A stretch of DNA of 64,000 nt. It comes from Malacoraja senta (lineage: Eukaryota). The stretch spans positions 2,170,001 to 2,234,000 of the forward strand of contig CM075991.1 in assembly GCA_038087875.1 (NCBI GenBank). The letters run 5' to 3'. Position numbers and translations under genes: made by a program. The notes below the pieces were generated by a model, which saw only the letters and a list, made by a program, of their open reading frames with translations, searched no databases and was not told the origin of the DNA. Shown here one piece after another: positions 10,076-61,129 of this stretch; positions within the stretch are counted from its first letter, which is position 1; each line of letters opens with the position of its first letter.

Positions 10076-13000
10076 CAATAGATTTTACTTCGGAGTCACG
10101 TGAGTGATTCCATGAAGAAGTCCCGCCAGAGCGCATGCGCGTCATTACGTCTGACGCATTGGCGTACGGACCAGCGGGAGGACAGAGCTCCTCCTGTGGT
10201 AAGTAGTTTTAAAGTAATTTTTTTTAAACTCCAGCTAAGTGGGAAAACTTAGCTGGAGTAAGAAGTTGTTTTGCTGTGGTGCCGTGCTTTGTTGGGTTTT
10301 TACAGGGCACCATGGACAAGATGACCAGGGGGAGGCGAGCCGCAAGTAAAGCAAAGGAGAGCCGCGGGAATGTGGTCTGTGAGCGGCTGCCTCGTACCCC
10401 TGCACAGTCGCCGACCGGGAGCGGGGCGACTGCAGACTTGGTGCTACAAAGCACCAAAGCACAGAGCCAACGCCAGTCGGGCATAAGGGTAAGGGAAAAG
10501 TCTGCGAGGCCCTCAGACTCAACTGATTCGGGCCACGACGAATCCCGTACGGGGCTGGATACTGTTTTTAAACGGTTATCCCAAATGGAGCACCTCATAC
10601 AGGGCTTGCTCCAGTAACGCACACTCCGGGGGGAGGAGTCGTGTGGGCGGCAGGCTGCAGAAGAGGCCACGCCGGCAGCACCTGGAAGAGGGCTGCTCGA
10701 TAGCACCCTCATTGATGAGGTGAGTGCAGAGGGGCAGCTAAGTTCTGACCCCGACTCTGACGGTGACTTCGATCCTTGCGAAGACGGACGTTTTCAGAGG
10801 TCCCATCTCTGGCAGCACGATTCGCTGTCCCGTCAAAGTCTGGAGAGGCACTGGGAGATGAGCTGGCCCCCACGATATAGAGGGCTGCTTGATAGCACCC
10901 TCATTGAAAAGGCGACTCCAGAGGGTCAGCTGAGTTCTGACCCCGACTCTCACGGTGAGTTCGAGCCTAGCGAAGACAGCCGTTGTCAGAGGTCTTATCT
11001 CTGGCAGCACGACTCGCTGTCCCGTCAGAGTCTGGTACCGCCAAGAAACAGGAGACCCGGGTAACTGCGAGTTGCTGGAGGTGCCAGCAGTGAACCAGGT
11101 GATATGGAGCCAGATGCGCGTGGGCATGAGTGCCCAGGAGATGAAGCTGCAGAGAATCCTGAAACTACTTGGCTCAGGAATCACGGCGTTCGCTAGAACA
11201 GTGGATGGAAGGCATCTGTCGGAGACACAGCAAGAGGTACTAGGGTTGCTTTGTAGTGCCCATTTTGAGATAAAGTGTCTCAGGGAAAGTGCCATTCGGC
11301 CCACCATTAATCCCAAGGTTGCAGCACTCTGCCAGCCCAGCAACATACAGCCGGCCAACCTACTCTTCGGAGATGACCTCGCCAAGTGTGTCTAGGAGAT
11401 GGATTATGAGGCAAAGTCGGTGGGTTGATCAAGCCACCGGGGGTCGGCAAGTTTCCAAAAAAGAAAGTACCCCTACAAACGAGGGACAGATTGGTCTGGA
11501 CCAGGAACAAGTCGGCCGGCAATGCAGATGTGCAGGTGGCATTCAGCAGCGGGAACACGGTCAAACATCTCTATTTTCCAAGATGGCAGATGTGCAGGAG
11601 TGGGCGCCGTTTGTATGGCCGCCTGCCTGCAGTCCGTCCTCTAACTCTTTTATTGTCTGAACATTTATTTTTTGGAGTCTATTCTTTCTACGTGGGGGGG
11701 GGGAACTGTTTTAACCCCAGTCCTACCTGGTCAGAGATGCGGTTTTCCTCCAAATCGCGTCTCCGGTCTCCCCATGCGGCCTTCCATCGGGCTGGGACGG
11801 CGTTTCCTGCCGGGGACCACAGCTTCGGCGGCGCAGCGCTGGGACATCAGCAGGGAGCGGGCGATGCCTTGCCGGGTCGCCGCTCTGGAGTGCTGTGGCC
11901 GCCGACCACCAACATCGGGCAGCCGCAGTCTGCGGTCTGCGGTTTGAGGGCGACACCGCGGAGTCGAGGCTCCAACCGGCGCGGCCTGAAATCCACGGGC
12001 GTCGCAGTCTCCGGGGAAGGAGCGGCCGCTCCAGACATTTCCAAGCTGCTGAGGACTTTTCCACCCGATGCGGGTGGGCAAACAACATCGGGCTGCCGTT
12101 GCGGCGACTGGCTGCAGTAGCCTCAAACTGGCCCCGACCTCGGGTGGACTAGGAGGAGGAGGAGGACTGGACATTTTGGTGCCTTCCCTCACAGTGGAGA
12201 GTGGAGATTCTACTGTGGGGGGATGTTCGTGTTTGTGTAAAATCTCTTATAGTGTGTTGTCATTTTTTCTATCTCTTTTTATTATTTGTATGGTTAGTAA
12301 CTGTAAAGCACTTTGGCTTTTGATTCAAATCAATTGGAAAATGTGCTATATAAATAAACTTATTATTATTATTATTATTATAAACGTTGGCTTTCCCGCC
12401 AGGGGCCGGGGACAACGGGATCCATCAGGTACCAAGGAGGTAGGTGGGCCTGGTTCTCAGGTGCACATATCAAATGTGACACAACTAAAATCTGGGGGTA
12501 CATTACATCGGTTCCGGGATGAATGGAAGCAAATTACCTCAGATCTGTTTATACTGAGTATTATTGAAGGGTTTCGAATGGAGTTCAATCCAAATTGTGA
12601 TTTGCACATTCAGCATGTTCCTGGGAGAACTGTTCAGTTTTCATTAACAGAACAGATGGAGGTTCAGACTGCGCTTGGAAGCTTATGTGATAAAGGTGTA
12701 ATTGGAAAGTCAGTTCACCAACCCCATCAATTTGTGTCTAATATTTTCCCAGGCCAAAAAAGGATGGTGAATGTAGTATAGACATTGTAAGATGGAATTG
12801 TCACTGCCAAGCAACTGGGTCCAGAGGATGCTATATGGCGACTATAGAGCTTAAAGATGCCAATTACTCAGTGTCTGTTCATTTGCAGGATAGAGGATAT
12901 TTGAAATTCACCTGGATGGATCAACTATGGCACAAAATTGTTAAAACCTATAATAGGCATGCTGAGAGGCCAGGGTCAGGTGCTCATGGCTTATCTCGAT

Positions 13001-14239
13001 GATATCTTGATTACAGGGGTATCCAAGAGAACAGCTGAAGTAACCGGTGGTAGTTGTTAAATCCACTTTTCAAAGATTGGGCATTAATCATCCAGAGAAA
13101 TCCAAATTAACACCTGACTATTTGGGTCACAATTGATTCAATTAAGTGACTCTGCCCAGGGAGAAAGGGTAGAGCTAATTGACAGCTGTATCAAGCTAAT
13201 GGAGGCACTAAGGATACATTCTGGTCATTATAATAGACCCATGCAGTTATCAGCAGAGGCTGTTTCTGATTTGCAATGGTGGATTCACCAGGTGTCCAGT
13301 AGTTCGAGAAACTTAGTGCTTGAGCAGCCTTCCATGATTTTGCAGATGAATGTCAGTGCACTCGGGTGGGGTGTCACGGATGCGAGTTTCAGCTGTGGAG
13401 GCAGATGGACTGAGCAAGAGGCATCGCTTCTGCAGACATGGGGAATTAACTATAAAGAGCTTTTTATGGATAAGGCTTATTGCTCTAACAAAGGTAACCT
13501 GCATGTTCAGTTTCAGATTGACAATACTACGGCAGTGGCATATATATTAATCACATGGGTGGAATCACATGGGCGGCATCTTGTGACAGATTGGCTAATC
13601 AAATTTGGGCCTGGTGTATTGAGAAAGATATTTGGTTTTCAGCTATTTATCTACCAGGTAGATTCAACATAGTAGCAGACGCCAGGTCACGAAAGTTCCA
13701 TGACAACACAGATTGGATGTTGAACCAGGAGGTGTTCAATAATATAGTACTTATATATGAATGCCAGATATCGATTTGTTTTGCATCGAGGTTTAACCAC
13801 CAGCTGCCTAAATATGTTTCATGGGAACCAGACCAGGGGGCAGTTGCAATTGATGCTTTCTCGCTACATTGGGGTGGTATGTTTTTATATATTTTCCCAC
13901 CATTCTGCCTCATAGGTCAGAGTCTGCAAAAAATCAAGCAGGATGCCGCTTCGGGGGTGCTTGTAATACCTAATTGCCCGACTCAAGCTTGGTTCCCTTT
14001 GATGTTACAGTTAGCGATCCAACCTCCTTTGGTGGTTCCCAAGCATAGGAATTTACTGGAGCATCCGCTAACACGGGAAAGTCATCCGTTATGTGACCGT
14101 ATTTGACTTGTTAATTTGCAGATTTTCAGAAGGCGATACCTGGGGCGAGGACTGTCTGGGCGAACGGTGGACATGCTCACTGCAGCCTGGAGAAAGAGTA
14201 CTCAAAAGCGGTATATTACTTATGTAAAAAATGGGAACT
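10076..14239 (+). mobile_element. DIRS-type tyrosine-recombinase retrotransposon (gag-like ORF, RT, RNase H, MT-like domain, start of YR), decayed
   Basis: Gag-like PGNCELLEVPAVN..IW and LLFGDDL. RT GGTLHRFRDEWKQITSD, LKDA and YLDD (12992-13003). RNase H ALGWG, DNTTAVAYI, YLPGRFNIVADARSR. MT-like FASRFNHQLPKYVSWEPD..IDAF..W..FPPF. YR N-terminus AAWRKSTQKRYITY. Confidence 0.85.
11566..12381 (+). mobile_element. GC-rich non-coding retroposon with L2-like 3' tail and (TTA)n, inserted in DIRS
   Basis: Starts near CCAAGATGGC and ends tgtaaagcactttgg...gaaaatgtgctatataaataaac(tta)n. No LINE coding motifs were recognised. Confidence 0.6.
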
Positions 14240-17035: not shown

Positions 17036-18221
17036 CCTGGTGTTTGGATTTTAAACCTCTGCTCTAAAGCCCATTGTACACCACCACCACTGGGTCTGTG
17101 AAATATCCTTATCCAACGCTGCATCATGTAACAGAAGGCTTATCATTTTTTGGTAAATATATGTTCAGCTGAGAGTACAATGTGCTGAACAAATGCACCA
17201 TGTTGCTTTGGTATTTAATGTCCTTTGACAACTCAGGAACCTGTATCACGTCTACAAATTAAGAGTTAGTCACCAGCCCGATAACGAACAGTTCAAAAAC
17301 TTTCTGCTCAGTAAATCTTCTCAGTCACTGGGCAACCATCTACACGTCTGGACTTAGCAAATTGACGAGAGAGTATATCACATGCCTGCAGCTGCAGGGA
17401 GGTTGAAGTGTTAACCTGTTGGGTGAATTGCCATTCCATTCAGCAGAGGAAAGACCAATCGATCTTGTTTAAATTTGACTAATGAAACACAGTGAAGAAG
17501 TGCATAAAACAAGCTGGTGGACAAGCAGTGAGAGAACAAGTGGGCCTACAATGCATTAGATCGTGCTAACAGTAAGTCCTTCTAAACTTCAATATTAATT
17601 TTTACCGAAGATCGACACAAAATGCTGGAGGAACTCAGCGGGACAGGCAGCATCTCCGGAGAGAAGGAGAGAAGGAGAAGTGAGAATTCTCTGCCTCAGA
17701 GGGTGGTGGAGGCCGGTTCTCTGGATGTTTTCAAGAGAGAGTTAGATAAAGATAGCGGAGTCAAGGGATATGGGGAGAAGGCAGGAACGGGGCACTGATT
17801 GTGGATGATCAGCCATGATCACAATGAATGGCTCGAAGGGCCAAATGGCCTACTCCTGCACTTATTGTCTATTGTCTATTGAGTGGGTGACGTTTCGGGT
17901 CGAGACCTTCTTAGCGTAGCGGGTGCCTGGGGTTGGTGGTGGAGGTAGTTATGATAGTTTAATTTAAGAAGCCATTTGATAGATAAAAATGGATATGAAG
18001 TGCTGATGTAACTCAGCAGGTCAGGTGGCATCTCTGGAGAACATCTCTGGAGAACATGGCTAGGTGACTTCTTCAGACTGAGAGCCAGGGGAAAGAGAAA
18101 TGAGAGATACAGACGGTGATGCGGAGAGATATGGAACAAAATGGAGGAACAGCACCTCATATTCAACTTGGGTAACTTACTGTCCAATGGTATGAACTAT
18201 TGAACCTTTAGTAACACCCCA

Positions 18222-18392
18222 GATAGACACAAAATGTCAGCGGGACAGGCAGCATCTCTGGAGAAAAGGAATGGGTGACGTTTCGGGTCGAGACGGGTCT
18301 TAAGAAGGGTCTCGACCAGAAACGTCACCCATTCCTTCTTCTCCAGAGATGCTGCCTGTCCCTCTGAGTTACTCCAGCTTTTTGTGTCTATC
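18222..18392. mobile_element. Palindromic Penelope-derived mini-element (head-to-head terminal repeats)
   Basis: gatagacacaaaa...gggtgacgtttcgggtcgagac is followed by its reverse complement. Confidence 0.75.
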
Positions 18393-18472
18393 TGTGAGGA
18401 AAGGTTCATTGTTAGCTGAGACGAAGGTGACAAGTCACAATGAGGCATAAAATCAGTGACATTAATCAATAG

Positions 18473-19637
18473 CAAGGGTCCTATAGCGAGCAAGATAGTC
18501 CACTCCTGCTATATCCAATGGGCTGACGTGTAGTACGCAACAGAGCGGAAATTCGGCCTTTTCATCGGCCATTTCAGTAACCCGACCCGACTTTGTATAT
18601 CCCTCTCGCAGTGTAATCAGCGTTGCGGGGGAACAGTTTGTGTGTGTGACATAGGGTTAGATTCATAATTTTGTTAATTCATATTTCTGTTAAAGTTTGT
18701 TAAAGATTAATATGTTAACAAATTATGATTCTGTTAATTGTCTTTTTTAATGTTAAAAAAAAAATCTTTTTAAATGGCTCATGTGCTGTGTTTGCGTTGA
18801 TTTTTGTATTACACTTGCACTCTGTAATTCATCTAATCACACTGTTCACAACTGCAGTATTTGGAAACATAATAGCAATATGAAGATTCCAGTTGCCCTA
18901 CTCTTGGAATGTTCCTTAATGTTCCTTAATGGTTTTTTGTGTCCATGGAATTGTTTTTCAACAATAAAATGGGTTTGGTCTTCCCAATAGCCAGAGAGTG
19001 GAATGAGATTGGTCTGTAATGGTGGGGTTATCTAATTGAAGTATTTAACAAAATAAGATTTGTATTGAGCTAGATTAAAAAACAATGTATAACTTAAGGA
19101 TGGTTTTATTCAGCGACCATACAACTGATTAGATTGTGTAGGAAAGAAACACACATACACACACATATATGGATGTGATATAGATGTATATAATCATATA
19201 ACACACACATATATATTTCTCCAGATTTTTATATATAATGATAAACTTTATTTCGGACACAAGGCCCAGACAAGGGACAACATTACATAAAAACACATTG
19301 CAAACCTCCCCGCAACTTTACCCTGGCGTCCCAGCCGTGCTGATCCGGGCCAGACTTCCCACACGCTGTGGAAGGAACATAGGCATCTTTTTCCTTTTTG
19401 TTGTGAGCAGAAAGAAAATAAGGAGAAGATTTTTACCAAAGATCTTTGATTTTTACGAGGATGTTTCCGTAAACGGCTTCCTTCTCCGCACTAGTATCTT
19501 TGTCCGCTAATGGGATCTTTGGTGTGGAGACGGAAGCCGGTTACGGAAATGGGGCTGAAGATTACCCATGACTCTGCCCGTGACCCTACTACGGCTTTTT
19601 CGTCGAGTGGACTATCTTGCTCGCTATAGGATCCTTG
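18473..19637. mobile_element. Non-autonomous DNA transposon with 33-bp TIRs
   Basis: caagg(g/a)tcctatagcgagcaagatagtccactc at 18473-18505 and inverted at 19605-19637 (1 mismatch). No TSD was found. Confidence 0.8.
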
Positions 19638-19808
19638 GTGAAGCCCTCTGTGAAGTGATCTTGCGGCCTGCATAAATGTAGGTGTAGTTTTACTGAATGT
19701 GGAAGGTCACACGAGATGAAGTACTTCATGTTGGTGAAGCCACACCCAGAGTAAACATCAGCAGTTTAGGGAGAGAAAGTTAGCAAGCTGGCTGGTCGGA
19801 AATAAGCA

Positions 19809-20485
19809 AAATGGAGGAACAGCACCTCATATTCAACTTGGGTAACTTACAGTCCAATGGTATGAACTATTGAATTTTAGATAACCTTTAGTAACACCCC
19901 AGATAGACACAAAATGTCAGCGGGACAGGCAGCATCTCTGGAGAAATGGAATGGGTAATGTTTTGGGCCGGGACCCTTCTTCAGACTGAGAGTCAGGGGA
20001 GGGGATGAGTAGAGATATAGAGGGGTAAGGTGTGAAAATGAAAGATCAAAGCAGACGATGGTGAGGAAACGTAGTAGAAAGGAAAACTGCATATATTGAT
20101 TTAAACCGAGATAGACACAAAAAGCTGGAGTAACTCAGGGGAACAGGCAGCATCTCTGGAGAGAAGGAATGGGTGACGTTTCTGAGTCGAGACGGGTCTG
20201 AAGAAGGCTCTCGACCCGAAATGTCACCCATTCCTTCTCTCGAGATATGCTGCCTGTCCCTATGAGTTACTCCAGCTTTTTGTGTCCATCTGTGAGGAAA
20301 TGTAGAACGGTTCATTGTTAGCTGAGGCGAAGGTGACAATGAGGCATAAAATCAGTGACATTAATCAAAAGGACAATGCAACTAGTTGGAGACCTAGGGT
20401 GGTGGAGGGACAGAGAGAGAGAGAGGAAGCAAGGGTTACTTGAAGTTAGAAAACACATTTCATACCACTGGGTTGTAAGCTGCAC
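19809..20485. mobile_element. Penelope-derived fragments including palindromic unit 20110-20290
   Basis: Same terminal repeat. Includes gaggaacagcacctcatatt.., from the GIY-YIG C-terminal region also seen near 28020. Confidence 0.7.
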
Positions 20486-20929
20486 AAGCGAACATTAACA
20501 ACACCACCCCACCCTCCTCCTTTCTCCCCCACCCCCCGTTTCTCCCCCCCCCCACTTCCCCGTGGCCCACCTGGACATTTACCTTATAACTCCCCTCCTC
20601 CCTACATTCCTTCATCTGGCTTCACAATTCACACAATTCACAGCTCTTCAATTCTTTTGTCCACACCATTTTTTTAATCTCCACCCTTTGTCCAAACAAA
20701 TCTGCCAATCAAAAATCCTTGTCTGTGTTCACCTATTACAGCGAGGCATGTCCGACCCCTCCTCCCTTCCAACTTTCTCTTGTTGCCTATCCATCATCTG
20801 CTTGACCTGCTACGTTCCTCCAGCACTTTGTGTCTTTTTCTCAAGATTCCAGCATCCGCAGTTCTCCGTGTCGAGTGCCAAACTCTTAATCCATTCCGAA
20901 CATCGGTCTCCACCTTCAGTGTCACTGGG

Positions 20930-22860
20930 ATAGGGGTGAGGGATAAAGAGGAGGGGGGTTTAGGAGGATGTCACGGCTGTGTTCAGAGGTGACATTACGG
21001 ATGGTTCGTCTAGTGAGGCTGTATGTGTGGAGCTGAGGAACAAGAAAGGGATGATCACCTTGTTGGGGGTGTACTACAGACCCCCGAATAGTCAACGGAA
21101 ATTAGAAGAACAAATATGCCAGGAGATTGCAGACAGTTGCAGGTCAAATAAGGTTGTTTTTAGTAGGGGACTTTAACTTTCCCAATATAGACTGGGAAAT
21201 TCATGGCATGAAGGGTTTAGATGGGGTGCAATTACTCAAAAGTGTTCACGAGAGTTTTCTCAAGCAGTATGTGGAGGCCCCCACATGTGAGAGGGCAACA
21301 CTGGATCTAGTATTGGGAAATTGGAAGAACAAGTTAATGAAGTGTGTGTGGATGAGCCTTTTGGGACCAGTGACCACAGTTCGATTAGCGTTGAGATAGT
21401 TATGGATTGGGACGGAGAGGGTCCACGTGTTAAAATGCTCAACTGGGGTAAGACCAACTTTGAGGGTATGAGAGAAGGTCTCACTCAAGTTAACTGGAGC
21501 AGGTTATTAGAGGGGAAAGGAACATCGGCCAAGTGGGATGTTTTTAAAAGTGTACTGAAGAGAGCTCAGGATGTGTACGTCCCCGTTAGAGTGAAGGGCA
21601 AAGCAGGCAAACGTAAGGAAGCTTGGCTGACGAGAGGAATGGAAACAAGAAGAATGCATGGGACAGGTGTAGGCAGCTAGGATCAAGTACATCCCTGGAG
21701 GAGTTTCGGGAACTAAGGAATAAACTATAAAAGGAAATCAAAAGGGCAAAAATGGGCCAGGAAATAGCTCTGGCGGGTAGCATCAAGGAAAATCACAAAA
21801 TATTTTATAAATACTCTACAAAAGGGGGAAAGGGGTAACTAGAGAGAGAGGGGGATCTCTGAAGAATCAAAGCAGTAACCTCCGTGTGGAGCCACAGGAG
21901 CAAGGTCCTCAATGAGTATTTCTCCTCTATATTTACCGAGGAGAAATAGGATGGAGAAAATTGGAGCAGTCACTGGAAGTGTCTTGAGAGCAGTCATGGT
22001 TCCTTGAAGGTCGAGTCGCAGGTAGATGAGGTGGTCAAAAAGACTATTGGCACTTTGGACTTCATCAGTCAGAGTATTGAGTATAGAAGTTGGGAGGTCA
22101 TGTTGCAGTTGTATAAGACGTTGGTGAGAACGCATTTAGAATATTGTGTTCAGTTCTGGGCACCATGTTATAGGAATGATATTGTCAAGCTTGAAAGTGT
22201 TCAGAAAAGATTTACAAGAATGTTGCCAGGACTAGAGGGTGTGAGCTATAGGGAAAGGTTGAGTAGGCTGGGACTCTATTCTTTGGAGCGCAGGAGGATG
22301 AGGGGAGATCTAATAGAGGTACACAAAATCATGAGAGGAATAGATCGGGTAGATGCACAGAGTCTTTTGCCCTGAGTATGGGAATCGAGAACCAGAGGAC
22401 ATAGGTTCAAGGTGAAGGGGAAAAGATTTAATAGGAATCTGAGGGGTAACGTTTTCACACAAAGGGCGGTGGGTGTATGGAACAAGCTGCCAGAGGAGGT
22501 AGTTGATGCTGGGAATATCCCATCATTTAAGAAGCAGTTGGGGTCAAGGAAAGAGCGTTCATGTCGCAGCCCTATTTCCACCAATCTTTCCACCACCACG
22601 CACAAGAATCGCAAGACAGACACCATTGTATGCAGATGCCGAGAAGCGTGCTCAGCTCTGGCTGAACAACTTCTAATCTTGTGTTTGGACCCGATAAGAA
22701 GAAGAAGAAACAGTTAGATAGGTACATGGATAGGACAGATTTGGAGGGATATGGACCAAGCGCAGGCAAGTGGGACTGGTGTAGCTGGGACATGTTGGCC
22801 AGTGTGGGCAAGTTGTGCCGAAGGGTCTGTTTCCACACTGTATCACTCAATGACTCTATC
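20930..22860 (+). mobile_element. CR1 LINE with endonuclease region, internal deletion near 21995, and 3' end
   Basis: Endonuclease motifs GVYYRPPNS, GDFNFPNIDW, LDLVLGN and GTSDH, then LVRTHLEYCVQFWAP and the CR1 tail. Confidence 0.9.
22540..22704 (+). mobile_element. Short retroposon 3' fragment with (AAG)n tail
   Basis: Flanked by a near-TSD aagaa(g/a)cagtt (22529-22539 and 22705-22715) inside CR1. Confidence 0.6.
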
Positions 22861-27490: not shown

Positions 27491-27649
27491 AGTTACTCCA
27501 GCACTTTGTGTCCTTTTGTGTCGATTTGGAGCATTCATCATAATCATACAGGTATCCCAGACTGGCTCTGACCAGACAAGTGGTTAGGGAGAAATGTTTC
27601 ATCCAGTATTCCTGGATGTTTGGCCTCTCCCTGCTCTCATCTTGATGTG

Positions 27650-28595
27650 ATAGACACAAAATGCTGCAGTAACTCAGCAGGACAGGCAGCATATCTGGAT
27701 CGAAGGAATGGGTGACGTTTCGGGTCGAGACCGTTCTTCAGACTGAAAGTCATGGGAGAGGGAGACACAGAGATAAGGGAGGGGAAGGTGTCAAAACAAG
27801 ACCGAAAGAGATGAGGATCAAGGAAAATATGGAATAGATCATTGTTAGCTAGGAGATGGTGACAACAAAGCAGAGGGAAAATGTAATCAGGGAAACAGTC
27901 AGATTGGTCGGAGAACTGGGAAGGGGGGGGGAAGGGGAGAGAGAGAAAGCAATGGTTACCTGGAGTTGGAGAAGTTAATGTTCATACCGCTGGGGTGTAA
28001 GTTGCCCAAGCAAAATATGAGCTGCTGTTCCTCCAACTCTGACAATGGAGGAGGCCCAGGACAGAAAGGTCAGTGAGGGAATGGGCGGGGGAGTTAAAGT
28101 GTTTAGCAATCGGGAGATCAGGTAGGTTCAGAGGGACTGAGCGGAGGTGTTCAGCGACATGATCGCTGAGCCTGCGCTTGGTCTTGCTGATATATAGGAG
28201 TCTACAACTGGAACAGCGGATACTGTAGATGAGGTTGGAGGAGGCGCAAGTGAACCTCTGCCTCACCTGAAAAGACTGTCGGGGTCCTTGGATGGAATAG
28301 AGGGCGGAGGTACAGGGACAGGTGTTGCATCGTCTGGGTTGCAGGGGAAGGTGCCCGCAGAGGGGGTGGTTTAGGTGGGAAGGGATGTGAACCAGGGATT
28401 TGCGGAGGGAACGGTCTCAACGAAAAACAGAAAGGGGCGGAGATGGGAAGATGTGGCTAGTGGTAGGATCCCGTTGGAGGTGGTGAAAATGTCGGAGGAT
28501 TATGTGCTGTATGGGGTGAAAGGTGAGGACTAGGGGGACTGTGCCTGTTGCCAATGGGGGGAGGTGGAGTGAGCAGAGCTGTGGGATATCTAGGA
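27650..28595 (-). mobile_element. Penelope-like element 3' part with GIY-YIG endonuclease and terminal repeat
   Basis: ORF 27982-28266 FTCASSNLIYSIRCSSCRLLYISKTKRRLSDHVAEHLRSV...IAKHFNS. Confidence 0.85.
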
Positions 28596-29905: not shown

Positions 29906-30897
29906 GAGCAGCAAGTGAAACAGCATTTGTTTTAAAACGAGGTGCTAGCAATCCAGAAATCCTGGGTCCATTCTGATTAATGTATCTATATTTTGATATA
30001 CATCGATGTTTTTAAACACTGCGGGATCCTTCTGCTTCCCAACCTTCCGCTTTAATGACATGGTGTTCACGCACTTCTCTCCTTCCTACACATTTCGTCT
30101 GCTCCACTGTGAAATCTCCTCAATTTATGCCTCAATTTATGCCTCCTTTGAAGACGTTCTCCTCTTCTCTCCGACGAGAGTTCAGCAACATCCTCTCTCG
30201 CTGCTCCCCCTCCTGCCCTCTCCGACTCTACAACCACCTTTTAACCCAGACTCGACTGTTCTCACCCAGCCCACAGCGAACAATGCCCTGTTACCTTTCT
30301 CATCGTTACTTTTTTGCATATCTTTCATTCATTTGTTCTATATCTCCCTACATCACCGTCTATATCTCTCGTTTCCCTTTCCCCAGACTCCCAGTTTGAA
30401 GAAGGGTCTCGACCCGAAATGTCACATTCCTATTCTACGGAGATGCTGCCCGACCCATATAACCATAACAGCACGGAAACAGGCCATCTCGGCCCTTCAA
30501 GTCCGTGCCGTACATTTAAAAAAAAAAAAAAAAAATTATTAAAAATAAATACTTCCCCCTAGTCCCATCTACCTGCACTCAGACCTGCTGAGTCACTCCA
30601 GAAATTTGTATGTATCTTCAGTTTAAACCAGCATCTGCAGTTCCTTCCTGCACATCCCAGCCTCACTGGCCGGGGTCCTGAACGTGTGATGCATTAAGGT
30701 TGAGCTTTCTTCTCTGTGGTCAGTGTTGGAAGTGACTAGCTCCACCTTCTGTGCCAGGTTAGTAAGCGCCCCCTGCTGGTACTGTTTAAAAATGTTTTGG
30801 TCAATTTTAGCACCTCCGCCCGCTGTTTCGCCTTTATTATCATCTTCCAATTTAACATACGGCAATATAGGTGCTGACAGTGTGGTTTCCAGCACAT

Positions 30898-43380: not shown

Positions 43381-43781
43381 CCTTCTGCATTCCCTCCATT
43401 CCCTGCATATCCAAAAAGCCTCTTAAACACCACTATGGCATCAGCCTCCGCCACCAGTGTGTTCCAGGTACCCACCAACCTCTGTGTGAAAAAAAGGACA
43501 CACACTACCTGTGTAACTCAGCGGGTCAGCAGGGACCCTTCCTCAGACTGATTGCAGGCAGGATGGTGAGGGCGGGGAGGGTATTATCTACATAAACATT
43601 TGTTCTATGTACCTTTTCATATCTCTCGTTTCCCTCTACACTGACTCTCGGTCTGAAGAAAGGTCTCGACCCGAAACACCACCTATTCCTTTTCTCCACA
43701 GAAGCTGCCTGACCCGCTGAGTTACTCCAGCATTTTGTGCCTATTTACTTATAACGGAGAGATTCCATCAGAATCCCCCAG

Positions 43782-47939: not shown

Positions 47940-48998
47940 TTTCTACAGCCCCAGCCTTATCGGATCGAACACGGCGGATAATCGAGTATTTACATACAAC
48001 CTGGAGTTAAAAATGCAGAGAAAGTCGATGCAAAGAGCGCATGTTCTCTCTCCTGAACTCGGGTCGGTTCCATCGGCTGCGAGGCAATTTGTAAAGCCCC
48101 GGCGGTACTGCGCTGCGCAGCGCCTGGTACACTGTGGGACCTCACACAACAGTCGAGAGGAGCGGAGATCAAACATCTCCTCGACTCGCTGATAATTCTG
48201 CACCAAATACCGAAAGCGTGGAAGAGAAGGTTTCTGCTTACAGTTGAGGAGGTTAAACTGAAAAGTCAACGTGATCTCTTACGTTAGTGTGAGGGGCTGT
48301 GTGTGTGTGTGTGTCTGTGAGTGTGTAGGTGTCTCAGTGTGTGTGTGTGTGTGTGTGGTGTGTGTGTGAGCGTGTGTGTGTGAGTGTCTGAGCGTATCTC
48401 AGTGTGTTTCAGTGAGTGTGTGTCTCAGTGTGTGTATCTCAGTGTGCGAGTGTGTCAGTGTGTGAGTGTGTGTGCGTCAGTGTGTGTAAGTGAGTGTGAG
48501 AGTGTGAGTGTCTATGTGTCTCAGTGTGTGTGTGTGAGTGTGAGTGTCTGTGTGTCTGTGTGTGTTTGTGTGTCTCAGTGTAAATGTGTGTCTCAGTGTG
48601 AGTGTGTATCTCAGTGTGTGTATGTGTGTGTGTGTCTGTGTATGTGCGTGTGTGTTTGTGTGTCCCAGTGTGTGTGTCTGTCCGTGTGTGTCTCAGTGTG
48701 AGTGTGTGTGTGTGCGGAGCTCCCCCTCTTAAAGCAGCTTGTGAAAAGCAGTGGAGTCAATGAACCAGAGCGTGTCATCAGGCAGCGCAGGCAGGGTTTC
48801 GCTGCCAGATCCGCTCCGCTAGCGGTGCTCGGCAGAGTCTCTCGGCAGAGTTAGCCCGTGTGCGCTGCGAGTCGGGATGGGACAGGAGAGCGGGACGTAT
48901 ACTTTGCAATGAGTTGTCCGCTGTTGGGCTGCGGGCTGAGCCTAGTTGTGGATGGAGCAGTGAGTGGACCGGTGTGAGGTCTCCCGGCCGGAGGAGCG
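47940..48998 (+). promoter_or_regulatory. CpG-rich putative promoter/5' UTR of adra2b
   Basis: Non-TE, CpG-dense sequence immediately upstream of the ATG. The TSS cannot be determined from sequence. Confidence 0.5.
48297..48713. repeat. Degenerate (TG)n-rich tract
   Basis: Directly visible, with recurring tctcagtgtg units. Confidence 0.95.
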
Positions 48999-50258
48999 AT
49001 GGAGTGCCCCGCCATCCGCGGCAACGCCAGCTCGCTGTGTAACGGGAGCCAGCAGGTGGTGTTGGGAGAGCGCCTCCTGTCGCTGCCCTACTCGGCCCGC
49101 ACCACCGCGGGCATCGCCACCGCCATCAGCTTCATCATCGGCGTCACCATCATTGGCAACGTCCTGGTCATCATCGCCGTGCTGACCAGCAGGTCGCTAC
49201 AAGCCCCTCAAAACCTCTTCCTGGTGTCCCTCGCCGCCGCCGACATCTTGGTGGCCACCTTGGTGATGCCATTCTCCTTGGCCAATGAACTGATGGGCTA
49301 CTGGTACTTCAAGAAGGTTTGGTGCGAGGTCTACCTGGCGCTGGACGTCCTGTTTTGCACGTCTTCCATTGTCCACCTCTGCGCCATTAGCCTGGATAGA
49401 TACTGGTCGGTGACCCAGGCCATTCAATACAACTCCAAGAGGACGCCCAGGAGAATCCGCTGCGTGATCCTCACCGTGTGGCTCATAGCGGCGGTCATCT
49501 CCTTCCCCCCTCTCATCTCCATGGACAAAAACCTGGGCGGAGAAGAGATCCCCGTGTGCCGGCTGAACGAGGAGCGCTGGTACATCCTGTCCTCCAGCAT
49601 CGGCTCCTTCTTCGCCCCGTGTGTCATCATGGTCCTGGTCTACATCAGGATCTACCAGGTGGCCAAGACGAGGACGAGGCGGTCGCCGGGCGGCCGAGAA
49701 GCGGGGCTGGCCAACGCCACCGCCTCCAACAAGCGGCGGTCCAACGAGCCGACCTCGCTGTCCCGCGGAAACAAGGTTCAGGAGATCGGAGGCGAGGGGA
49801 AGGAGGGAGCTGGAGATTCTTCATCCTCGGAACAGGAGGATTGCTCCAACCAAGGGAAGTCCCAGACAAGGATTGAAGCTGGGGGGTCCCACAAGCAGGC
49901 AGCTTGCTCGTGCCAAAGCCAAGCCGAGCACTTGGCCAAGCGGCAAGCTCCACTGACGCCCAACGCCATCAGGAAGAAAGCCATCCAGACCCGCGAGAAG
50001 AGGTTCACCTTCGTTTTGTCGGTCGTCATTGGCGTGTTTGTTCTCTGCTGGTTCCCATTTTTTTTCTCCTACAGCCTGACCGCTATCTGCCCGGCCACTT
50101 GCTCCATCCCCCCCGCTATCTTCAAGTTCTTCTTCTGGATCGGCTACTGCAACAGTTCCCTCAACCCCGTCATCTACACCATCTTCAACCAGGACTTCAG
50201 GAGAGCCTTCAGGAGGATCCTCTGCCGGGAACACAAGGGCTCTCTGTACCGCGTGTAG
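48999..50258 (+). CDS. adra2b: Alpha-2B adrenergic receptor (intronless class A GPCR, 419 aa)
   Basis: Good Kozak context gcgATGG. Subtype-B-like motifs [77 protein letters not shown] and [33 protein letters not shown]. Confidence 0.93.
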
Positions 50259-51567: not shown

Positions 51568-53178
51568 CAGTACCCTCCATAATGTTTGGGACAAAGACCC
51601 ATAATTAATTAATGTATTTATTTGCTTCTGTGCTCCACAATTTGAGATTTGTAATAGAAAAAGATTCACATGTGGTTAAAGAGCACATTGTCAGATATTA
51701 ATAAAGGTCATTTTTATACATTTTGGTTTCACCATGTAGAAATTACAGCAGTGTTTATACAAAGTCCCCCCATTTCAGGGCACCATAATGTTTGGGACAC
51801 AGCAATGTCATATAAATGAAATTAGTCATGTTTAGTATTTTGTTGCATATCCTTTCAATGCAATGACTGCTTGAAGTCTGTGATTCATGGACATCACCAG
51901 TTGCTGGGTGTCTTTTCCTGGTGGTGCTCTGCCAGGCCTGTTTTGCAGCCATCTTTAGCTTATGTTTGTTTTGGCAGCTAGTCCCCTTCAGTTTTCTCTT
52001 CAGCATATAAAAGGCATGCTCAATCGGGTTCAGATCGGGTGATTGACTTGGCCACTCATGAAATTGACCATTTTTTAACCTTTGAAAAACTCCTTTGTTG
52101 CTTTTTGTTTGTGATCATTGTCTTGCTGTAGAATGAACCGCTGGCCAATGAATTTTGAGGCATTTGTTTGAACTTGAGTAGATAGGATGTGTCTATACAC
52201 TTCAGAATACCATCAGCAGTTGTATCATCAATGAAGATAAGTGAGTCGGTACCTTCAGCAGCCATACATGCGCAGGCCATAACACCCCCACCGCCGTGTT
52301 TCACAGATGAGGTGGTATGCTTTGGATCTTGGGCAGTTCCTTCTCTCCTCCATACTTTGCTCTTGCCATCACTCTGATATAAGTTAATCTTCGTCTCATC
52401 TGTCCACAAGACCTTTTTCCAGAACTGTGGTTGCTCTTTTAAGTACTTCTTGGCAAACTGTAACCTGGCCACGCTATTTTTGCGGCTAACCAGTAGTTTG
52501 CATCTTGCAGTGTAGCCTCTGTATTTCTGTTCATGAAGTCTTCTGCGGACAGTGGTTATTGACAAATCCACACCTGAAGAGTGTTTCTGATCTGTGGGAC
52601 AGGTGTTTGGGGATTTTTTCTTTATTACAGCGAGAATTCTTCTGTCATCAGCTGTGGAGGTCTTCCTAGGCCTGCCAGTCCCTTTGCAATTAGTAAGCTC
52701 ACCAGTGCTCTCTTTCTTCTTAATGATGTTCCAAACAGTTGATTTTGGTAAGTCTAATGTTTGGCTGATGTCTCTAACAGTTTTATTCGTGTTTCTCAGT
52801 CTCATAATGGCTTCTTTAACTTTCATGGCACAACTTTGGTCCTCATGTTGAAAGACAGCAATAAAAGTTTCCAAAGGTGATGGAAAGTCTGGAGGAAAGA
52901 CGAGGTGCTGAGAGCTCCCTTATACCTGCATTAAGGAGGCAATTAAACACACCTGAGCAATTACAAACACATGTAAAGCCATGTGTCCCAAACATTATGG
53001 TGCCCTGAAATGGGGGGACTATGTATTAACACAGCTGTAATATCTACATGGTGAAAATAAAATGTATAAAAATTGCCTTTAATAAAATCTGACAATGTCC
53101 ACTTTAACCACATGTGATTTTTTTCTATTACACATCTCAAACTGTGGAGTACAGAGGCAAAGAAATAAATAAAGACTG
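51568..53178 (-). mobile_element. Tc1 transposon, near full length, IR/DR type, frameshifted transposase
   Basis: TA|CAGT...ACTG|TA ends. Inverted repeats of about 230 bp with direct repeat ccataatgtttgggaca; the right IR lacks about 30 bp. Motifs GRPRKTS, WKKVLWTDETKINL, VKHGGG and WPSQSPDLNPIEH. Confidence 0.92.
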
Positions 53179-56607: not shown

Positions 56608-57159
56608 TTCTTTCCATCTGTTTCCCCACAAAGGTAATTTGCCGACCCCCATAATTGGCCGAGACTCTGGGTGGTGTAGCTGGTCGAACCACTGCCCTTA
56701 AGGGTCTCGACCCGGAACGTCACCCTTTCCTTCTCTCCAGAGATGCTGCCTGTCCCGCTGAGTTACTCCAGCATTTTGTGTCTATCTTCATACAAATGTA
56801 TAACTGAAAGCAGTTCCCTCATCCCCACGGATGATCATAGACCTTCCATCTCACTGACCCAGCGTCTCAATGAGAGGGAGGTAGCTAACATACCCGAGGA
56901 ATGTAGCACCGTGCCAAAAGACCACTTCAAACATCTGGGGGAGATGGCAGGCTTGTTGTTGAAGCAGCTTGTTTATGCACTCTCAGCCACATCTCTATTA
57001 CATTTGGCAAACATACTGTTGACCATGGTATGTGTAGATAATTTATAACAAGTTGGGATAGTCAACAAATGACTAACTGACACAAAGCTTCACATTAAAA
57101 ACCTGGTCAGATATATAATGGGGGGAAAAACTCCGAGCTTTGTTTCTTCAGCCACAGCC

Positions 57160-60160: not shown

Positions 60161-61129
60161 TCAACACATGCTTTGCTTTGAGATTGCCAGCTGGCCATTG
60201 CAATTCACCCAGTGGCCAGTCATCACCTTGGGATTAGACAATGCCAGCATGTTTCACAATACATAGTAGCACTAAAACCTGTCTGAAGAAGGGTCCCGGC
60301 CTGAAACCAACTATTCCATGTTCTCCAGAGATGCTGCCTGACCTGCTGAGTTACTCCACCAACTTGTGTCTTTTTTTGTAAACTCGCATCTTCAGTTCCT
60401 CGCAGCTCCAATCCTGTTACATTTGCCATGTACCTTGCATTGCTGTAGAGGCTGCTAATAACAATCGAAAGGAGCACGAAGAACAGTCTCATAAACTCAA
60501 CCCGTTCTAAATAAACAAATGACTTGATATGCAGTCGCCAAGCTCGGCCCCGAAGACCTGAGAGACGAGGAGCGCTTGGCGATGACAGACAAGAAGATTA
60601 GATATAATTCTTTATTCAGTACTTCACTGGAAACTCATGTGGCTGTGGTGGCAAGTCTAGGCCAGAATATGTGAAGGAAGGAACTGTAGATGCTGCTTCA
60701 AACCAAAGATAAACCAAAGCTGGAGTAACTAAGTGGGTCAGGCAGCATCTCTGGAGAGTAGGAATGGGTGACGTTTTGGGTCGAGACCCTTCTTCAGAGG
60801 CAGTCTCACCTGTTCCTTTTCTCAGAGATGCTGCCTGACCTGCTGAGTTACTCCAGCTTTTTGTGTCTATTTGGGTCAGAACATGATTGTAGATCAGGAG
60901 TGCGGCAAGAATTACAGAGGGGAAGTTGTGAGAGAGGGTCTTACAGAACTCCTGTCGGAGAGAGGAGAGAACTCCTTGAGGAGTTTACGCAGATGAGCAG
61001 TAAAATGTAAACACAAGGAACTGCAGATGCTGGTTTCTAAAAAAAGACGCAGCAGGTGAGGCAGGTTCTCTGGAGAACATGGATAGATAACGTTTTGTGT
61101 CGGGACCCTTCTTCAGATCATTAGACCTT

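Follow-up and report, generated by a model that had tools for sequence, protein, structure and literature searches.

A likely minimal hammerhead ribozyme in the pseudo-LTRs of a Penelope-like element of Malacoraja senta and its decayed copies in a 64-kb window

The window, that is, the whole stretch of 64,000 nt analysed here (Malacoraja senta, contig CM075991.1, positions 2,170,001 to 2,234,000 of the forward strand), contains at 20194-20229 a short motif that had been proposed, from the letters alone, as a hammerhead-like core in an abundant Penelope-derived repeat. Direct reading confirmed the sequence at this place, with C3 of the hammerhead (HHR) at 20198 and the predicted cut after 20225. 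The copy belongs to a hairpin insertion (Table 1) placed in the spacer of an older minus-strand fragment of a Penelope-like element (PLE), and that fragment's own HHR is the copy at 19984; the spacer of the fragment is a dispersed repeat. The arms at 20109-20182 and 20218-20291 of the insertion were 91% complementary, and as RNA the insertion was predicted to form a single long duplex (-140 kcal/mol, z -19) with GAAA and the cut site buried. We regard the 20194 copy as a mutated retrocopy that is predicted to be inactive. The copy at 18295 had a common internal junction and a common right flank with the 20194 copy, so it is a rearranged duplicate of the 20194 event and no independent insertion; this exact junction occurred nine times genome-wide. 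At 18473-19637, inside the duplicated PLE spacer, there is also an element with 33-nt inverted ends (97%), which is probably a MITE.

Table 1 Coordinates of the hammerhead copies and associated features in the window
Feature	Position	Strand	Description
Decayed minimal HHR copy	20194..20229	+	CUGAAGA 20198-20204, bulged A 20205, stem II 20206-20217 (one mismatch), GAAA 20218-20221, helix III broken (C15.2U)
Head-to-head hairpin insertion	20075..20291	.	217 bp; two 5'-truncated pseudo-LTR (pLTR) ends
Left arm of hairpin	20075..20193	-	pLTR end with long tail; truncated inside stem II, without CUGA
Right arm of hairpin	20196..20291	+	Begins 2 nt before C3, stops at short 3' end (about +93)
Left target-site duplication	20061..20074	+	14 bp; 13/14 identical to right one
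Right target-site duplication	20292..20305	+	
Host of the insertion, older PLE 3' fragment	19900..20490	-	Endonuclease C-terminal remnant about 20440-20490, spacer, HHR 19957-19984, arm; boundaries by eye
Rearranged duplicate of 19807-20371	18137..18472	+	Contains the 18295-18330 copy
Truncated HHR copy	17881..17914	-	5'-truncated, without CUGA
Truncated HHR copy	56700..56787	+	From bulge/stem II onward, without CUGA
Decayed HHR copy	30394..30456	+	Pyrimidine spacer upstream
Decayed HHR copy and arm	43650..43739	+	
Decayed HHR copy and arm	60281..60370	+	
Head-to-head pair	60716..60873	.	HHR with G12A in minus arm
5'-truncated PLE	27649..28587	-	Linker and GIY-YIG remnant, 226-nt spacer, HHR, arm

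All ten copies that had been named beforehand were present in the window, and, as had been noted for the copies checked beforehand, none of the listed copies was intact. The changes were G5U and C11.1A in copy 18299, a stem II mismatch and C15.2U in copy 20198, C3U and C15.2U in copy 30396, G10.1A with loss of helix III in copy 43653, C11.1U with loss of helix III in copy 60283, and G12A and G16.2A in copy 19984; copies 27741 and 60797 each had a sole change (G10.1C and G12A, respectively). A 115-nt query gave 35 BLAST matches in the 64-kb window, and the loose pattern CTGANGA-N4-25-GAAA gave 14 matches vs 5.1 ± 2.2 in shuffles, with 14 or more in 0 of 100 shuffles. The window also holds, on the plus strand at 48978-50258, an intact single-exon ORF resembling an alpha-2 adrenergic receptor (Pfam 7tm_1; best PDB matches alpha-2A/2B, E 6e-140). 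Directly 3' of a LINE RT fragment, the stretch 22528-22591 (+) scored 27.4 bits against the CPEB3 HDV-like ribozyme model (gathering score 35), a partial match whose alignment covers the first helices only. Broken ORFs at about 10200-14100 (+), with RT, RNase H and methyltransferase-like pieces and weak Pfam matches, presumably belong to a DIRS-type retrotransposon, and a Tc1-like transposase remnant (Pfam HTH_Tnp_Tc3_2) lies at 52056-52919 on the minus strand.

The Penelope origin of the repeat was borne out, as the motif was found in the pLTR of a Neptune-type PLE. Copies with a long ORF were found by a genome search with the endonuclease remnant at 28587-27968 (minus strand), which lies 226 nt upstream of the HHR at 27714-27741. 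The full-length copies L101, L243, L245 and L246 had the order HHR, ORF with RT and GIY-YIG, HHR, and their ORFs were 1,250-1,302 codons long, with the first ATG of the element about 160 nt after C3. Pfam analysis of the L101 ORF, to whose protein the window remnant is 66% identical, gave RVT_1 at E 6.5e-6 and GIY-YIG at E 1.2e-3, both under the gathering score, and the protein has the motifs DKG, YIDD and LIYCIRC..IYIGET. Its linker between RT and endonuclease contains CX4CxxC (CNRKRCNTC), which fits the CX2-5CxxC linker given for Neptune and Nematis elements in PMC8557442. The element would thus be Neptune-type, an assignment made by a linker that Nematis shares and not by an RT tree. As in endonuclease-bearing PLEs generally, we found a single ORF with RT and C-terminal GIY-YIG, pLTRs from partial tandem copies, inverted 5'-truncated copies and an optional tail, which in such elements has 30-40 nt. 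All 144 scored RT matches were 99-100% identical to the query, so one subfamily is very young. The motif belongs to an autonomous and recently active element.

The motif in both pLTRs probably represents a minimal hammerhead (min-HHR) of type I and of the PLE kind, a membership that would rest on the full set of hallmarks and the expected position rather than on covariation or activity. The core order CUGANGA, GAAA and NUH stood up in the sequence, and so did the ACGU palindrome of helix III (15.2-16.2), whose pairing would need a dimer. In the youngest subfamily this palindrome is extended to AACGUU, and the predicted self-duplex energies were -3.1 kcal/mol for ACGU and -5.5 kcal/mol for AACGUU. 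The extra A after CUGAAGA had been called non-canonical, but an unpaired nucleotide between 9 and 10.1 is a published min-HHR hallmark (PMC4209133). The G10.1-C11.1 pair was G-C in 95 of 134 copies and G-T, by CpG decay, in 20. The sequence-only reading had also closed stem I with GGGU/ACCC, which is indeed present in the 18295 and 20194 copies (one event) but is junction sequence and not the native stem I. Genome-wide, 6,050 exact copies had CAGT directly before the core and 428 had GGGT, and a script sorted 30 GGGT loci into nine antisense stem II overlaps, five other inverted junctions, five short sense duplications and 11 unrelated flanks, so that GGGT was the element spacer in 0/30 by these classes. 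The native stem I consists of 2 bp, U-A and G-C, paired in 88% and 91%, with a third pair in 7% of 102 copies; helix I of the min-HHRs in print measures 4-5 bp, the 2-bp D. virilis variant excepted. The native stem II has 4 bp.

Structure prediction did not place the hammerhead fold at the minimum for monomer or dimer (monomer about -4 vs -9 to -13 kcal/mol), and the Rfam covariance models gave no hammerhead match at E ≤ 10 in the window or in an intact young copy (L243:3200-3600); the Rfam miRNA matches were the hairpin insertions. We also rejected a permutation of the motif that would be cut at NUC|AGU, ahead of the core, because helix III could not form. On the whole, we consider it probable that the motif in both pLTRs of this autonomous PLE is a min-HHR that would cut only weakly and as a dimer, and that the window copies are retrocopies predicted to be inactive.

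To see the abundance of the motif, exact patterns were counted in the 1.94-Gb genome. The intact core with stem II left open had 75,706 matches (control 1), about 39 per Mb, while a 29-nt subfamily pattern had 16,343 (control 0) and a second subfamily pattern 16,346 (control 0). We also sampled 89 stretches chosen by position, 942.6 kb in all and including the window, and counted 31 strict cores there (25 having a stem II of 4 bp) and 324 downstream arms; the latter figure extrapolates to roughly 670,000 arm copies. Since inserted copies decay neutrally, comparing core with flank across copies is a weak test and a comparison between subfamilies is needed. We compared 73 distinct endonuclease-linked units, with four clusters of at least two members, and between spacer-defined subfamilies (45 pairs) the spacer was 50% identical, the 28-nt HHR 89% and the arm 84%, which meant that the arm was nearly as conserved as the core. 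Among 137 core-spanning copies (the 324 arm matches less those that scored below 30, started late or had no alignment across the core), a second allele of at least 10% was seen at 0/10 non-CpG core sites vs 14/58 arm sites, a contrast that is not significant (Fisher p = 0.11) and is biased, as only copies aligned across the core were admitted.

Three lineage variants affected pairing or the cut position, namely U-A to U-G in stem II, the same change in stem I, and C17U, and these, like the loop changes also found inside the motif, are all tolerated. At the subfamily level we found one-sided wobble variants only and no two-sided compensatory change; A-U double changes at pair 10.2 were left out as covariation, being expected from two transitions. 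A readable HHR was present within 520 nt of 34 of 50 endonuclease fragments, but the most divergent ones (46-58% identity) mostly had none at this distance, so no deep-branch covariation was scored. An A.A combination at pair 10.2, which breaks stem II, was considered as evidence against pairing and set aside as a passenger copy inside a MITE, uninformative on selection. Of the 657 double-changed matches, the first 100 were counted by eye and 69 of them belonged to this A.A subfamily; 10 of 12 fetched loci had the same palindromic insertion carried by a 700-bp MITE. This MITE has terminal inverted repeats and TTAA flanks (L231-L242, e.g., C1:41618900-41620500), has spread the captured PLE hairpin, and is taken by us to be Kolobok/piggyBac-like. 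The catalytic G12 and helix III lie in CpG dinucleotides (positions 11.1-12 and 15.2-16.2), which decay fastest; G12A was present in 30% of the 137 copies, and 23/137 were intact. The ribozyme would be under selection in the master elements only.

We then looked at the ends of the copies. Of 237 arm-anchored copies, 92 had their 5' end at -6 to +2 of C3, about 10 per nt vs 0.1-0.4 upstream of -15, while only eight began at +26 to +30 around the cut, so no excess of copies starting at the cut site was seen in this set. The pile-up at the 5' edge is not a gap in the subfamily library, because the solo copies in this zone had a pyrimidine spacer upstream in 2/55 and an upstream sequence resembling another in 4/55. 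The same edge was found at 13 of 30 unselected young loci, which end within 6 nt of C3. Duplications of 8-17 nt flanked 23 of 70 young loci (the 30 unselected plus 40 hand-picked, 32 of the latter chosen for short 5' ends), and 22 of these 23 had 0-4 element bases before C3. The 3' ends formed two groups about 35 nt apart, at +80-104 (132/247) and +120-134 (91/247). We saw no cap-derived extra G at the 5' junctions of copies. At L172, L211, L214 and L267, the first 9-12 nt of the core were duplicated at the 5' junction, which is expected if RT jumps back after running off the RNA end. As the 5' ends pile up at the 5' edge of the ribozyme and not at the cut site, uncut RNA was likely the template for the copies, and the RNA 5' end likely lay at the ribozyme edge, as judged from DNA junctions only.

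These ends also bear on the suggestion that the genome is seeded with a retrozyme-like family, that is, a non-autonomous family in which the ribozyme cuts tandem monomers that then circularise and reinsert. A high copy number, a type I HHR and a dimer-type helix III would all suit such a family, and retrozymes, described as derived from pLTRs, are reported in the one chondrichthyan genome of a preprint (bioRxiv 10.64898/2026.07.22.740005). However, the motif sits in an autonomous, active PLE, the HHR unit was in 0/35 tandem-repeat rows of the window, copy ends were off the cut site, and upstream of the HHR there was either the endonuclease C-terminus or unrelated flank. Neighbours within 200 nt in the 942.6-kb sample were also head-to-head in 54 of 79 pairs, with 15 same-strand and 10 tail-to-tail pairs. 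As regards most copies in the window and the 0.94-Mb sample, the retrozyme reading is largely refuted, and we consider it very improbable.

What fixes the 5' edge can be read in more than one way. Conservation between subfamilies starts exactly at TCAGT, where copy 5' ends pile up and which we take to fit the initiator consensus. The motif could thus be kept mainly as a DNA internal promoter or protein-binding site, with a vestigial hammerhead that no longer cuts; as a promoter, it would have its initiator at TCAGT and downstream TFIID elements over stem II, GAAA and GTC. With +1 at the A of TCAGT, positions +18 to +29 match the MTE consensus (PMC8384218) at 9/12 (8/12 in the youngest subfamily), with a chance of 0.003 (0.017 for 8/12) at a fixed place chosen post hoc, and the match is partly explained by GAAA alone. 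The pLTR of D. virilis Penelope contains an internal promoter of the Inr/DPE type (PMC2377424). In the present motif, stem I has only 2 bp, and structure prediction disfavours the hammerhead. Against a promoter alone, all min-HHR hallmarks occur together (core boxes, bulge, G10.1-C11.1, palindromic helix III and NUH triplet), lineage variants keep the pairing and the H rule, and promoter and ribozyme are not mutually exclusive. We therefore hold a purely promoter or binding role to be unlikely. A hammerhead that doubles as RNA polymerase II core promoter is a little less unlikely, and we put it forward tentatively: RNA would start at TCAGT, 2-3 nt before C3, MTE/DPE-like elements would lie in stem II, GAAA and GUC, and the ribozyme would be a switch, triggered by dimerisation, that decaps the element mRNA. 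If this overlap is true, the 5' end of the RNA leaves no sequence for a longer stem I, run-off cDNA synthesis on the uncut leader accounts for the short copies in their hundreds of thousands, and cleavage only clips a capped 31-nt leader and does not release the element from a precursor.

Alternatively, TCAG|T could be a 3' splice site, with splicing giving a longer stem I as in D. virilis Penelope, in which an intron ends at helix I (PMC4209133, PMC2377424). Every subfamily has a pyrimidine tract before CAG, and many have GT at the ORF stop. On the other hand, there was no common upstream exon, only 4/55 solo copies resembling another upstream, GT is absent from the ORF stop in the youngest subfamily, and an AG|GT donor would restore the same AGU; we think splicing at this place distinctly less likely than either promoter reading. 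The repeat was also seen in assembled, putatively RNA-derived contigs of three of four runs (X1, X3 and X6) from other organisms, which hold no information on starts, ends, strand or level. Among the 40 run-contig rows listed, no splice joint at CAG was found, and the two HHR variants present were the same as tolerated variants of M. senta copies.

For the preferred reading, a min-HHR in an active PLE, we suggest the following course. The element protein would nick DNA and begin RT at an internal point of the RNA, about 93 or about 125-130 nt past C3, and RT would pass through the uncut hammerhead and often run off the RNA 5' end 0-5 nt before C3, giving solo copies of 95-135 bp. Where both target strands are primed, two cDNAs could be joined head to head via short overlaps, as in 20075-20291; we infer such two-strand priming as the source of the hairpins, while PLE palindromes have been explained by self-priming on antisense RNA (PMC3846280). 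In master elements, the ACGU palindromes (AACGUU in the youngest subfamily) of two RNAs would base-pair with each other, and the RNAs would be cut after GUC or GUU, probably with help of the element protein in pairing or cutting. In an anole element, RT starts internally, and HHR cleavage needs protein and is dispensable for insertion (PMC11167929).

As a motif, a min-HHR in a PLE pLTR is ordinary and has been published since 2014. What a young active family at high density offers is thousands of natural experiments. The role of PLE hammerheads is still described as open (PMC8557442), and since copy ends place the likely RNA 5' end at the ribozyme edge, a promoter-plus-decapping role is directly testable.

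Our literature search, with most subscription journals and repeat databases outside its reach, found neither this family nor transcription starting from the HHR edge described, and two PMC4209133 supplements searched had no shark or skate terms. Metazoan non-LTR retrozymes (PMC7229834, bioRxiv 10.64898/2026.07.22.740005) resemble the present family in the type I HHR, the pLTR link and the high copy number, and those of vertebrates are dimer-dependent, with up to 120,000 copies in axolotl. They are, however, defined by tandem HHR units of about 170-400 nt and circular RNA, whereas the family here is known from DNA and does not show the tandem arrangement in the window and the 0.94-Mb sample. 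Closer are the min-HHRs that Cervera and de la Pena (2014, PMC4209133) described from PLEs, including fish elements of the Xena, Poseidon and Neptune types. They agree with the present motif in the type I core, in the nucleotide left unpaired between 9 and 10.1, in G10.1-C11.1 and in the palindromic 15.2-16.2; they also occur once per pLTR, and most of their copies are dispersed, single or opposite-strand truncated. Compared with that paper, stem II is 4 bp here vs 7-8 bp in Schistosoma, stem I is 2 bp vs 4-5 bp (2-bp helix I is given there only for D. virilis), and the 75,706 intact cores compare with about 4,000 in coelacanth and 9,000 in X. tropicalis, counts obtained by different search methods.

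The Anolis Poseidon element PAc (Frangieh et al. 2024, PMC11167929) likewise has two internal RT starts that define the tail, the HHR upstream, and uncut RNA as insertion template, which here is inferred from copy ends. PAc belongs to the Poseidon clade, and its ORF starts inside stem II, whereas our element has a Neptune-type linker and a later first ATG; the fixed 5' end at the HHR edge is not described for PAc in the available part of that paper. Finally, the hairpins here resemble inverted-pLTR PLE insertions (PMC3846280, PMC8557442), with head-to-head 5'-truncated copies, a tail at one end, microhomology joins and target duplications (about 8-10 bp there), but unlike those, the arms here are about 100-130 bp and very numerous.
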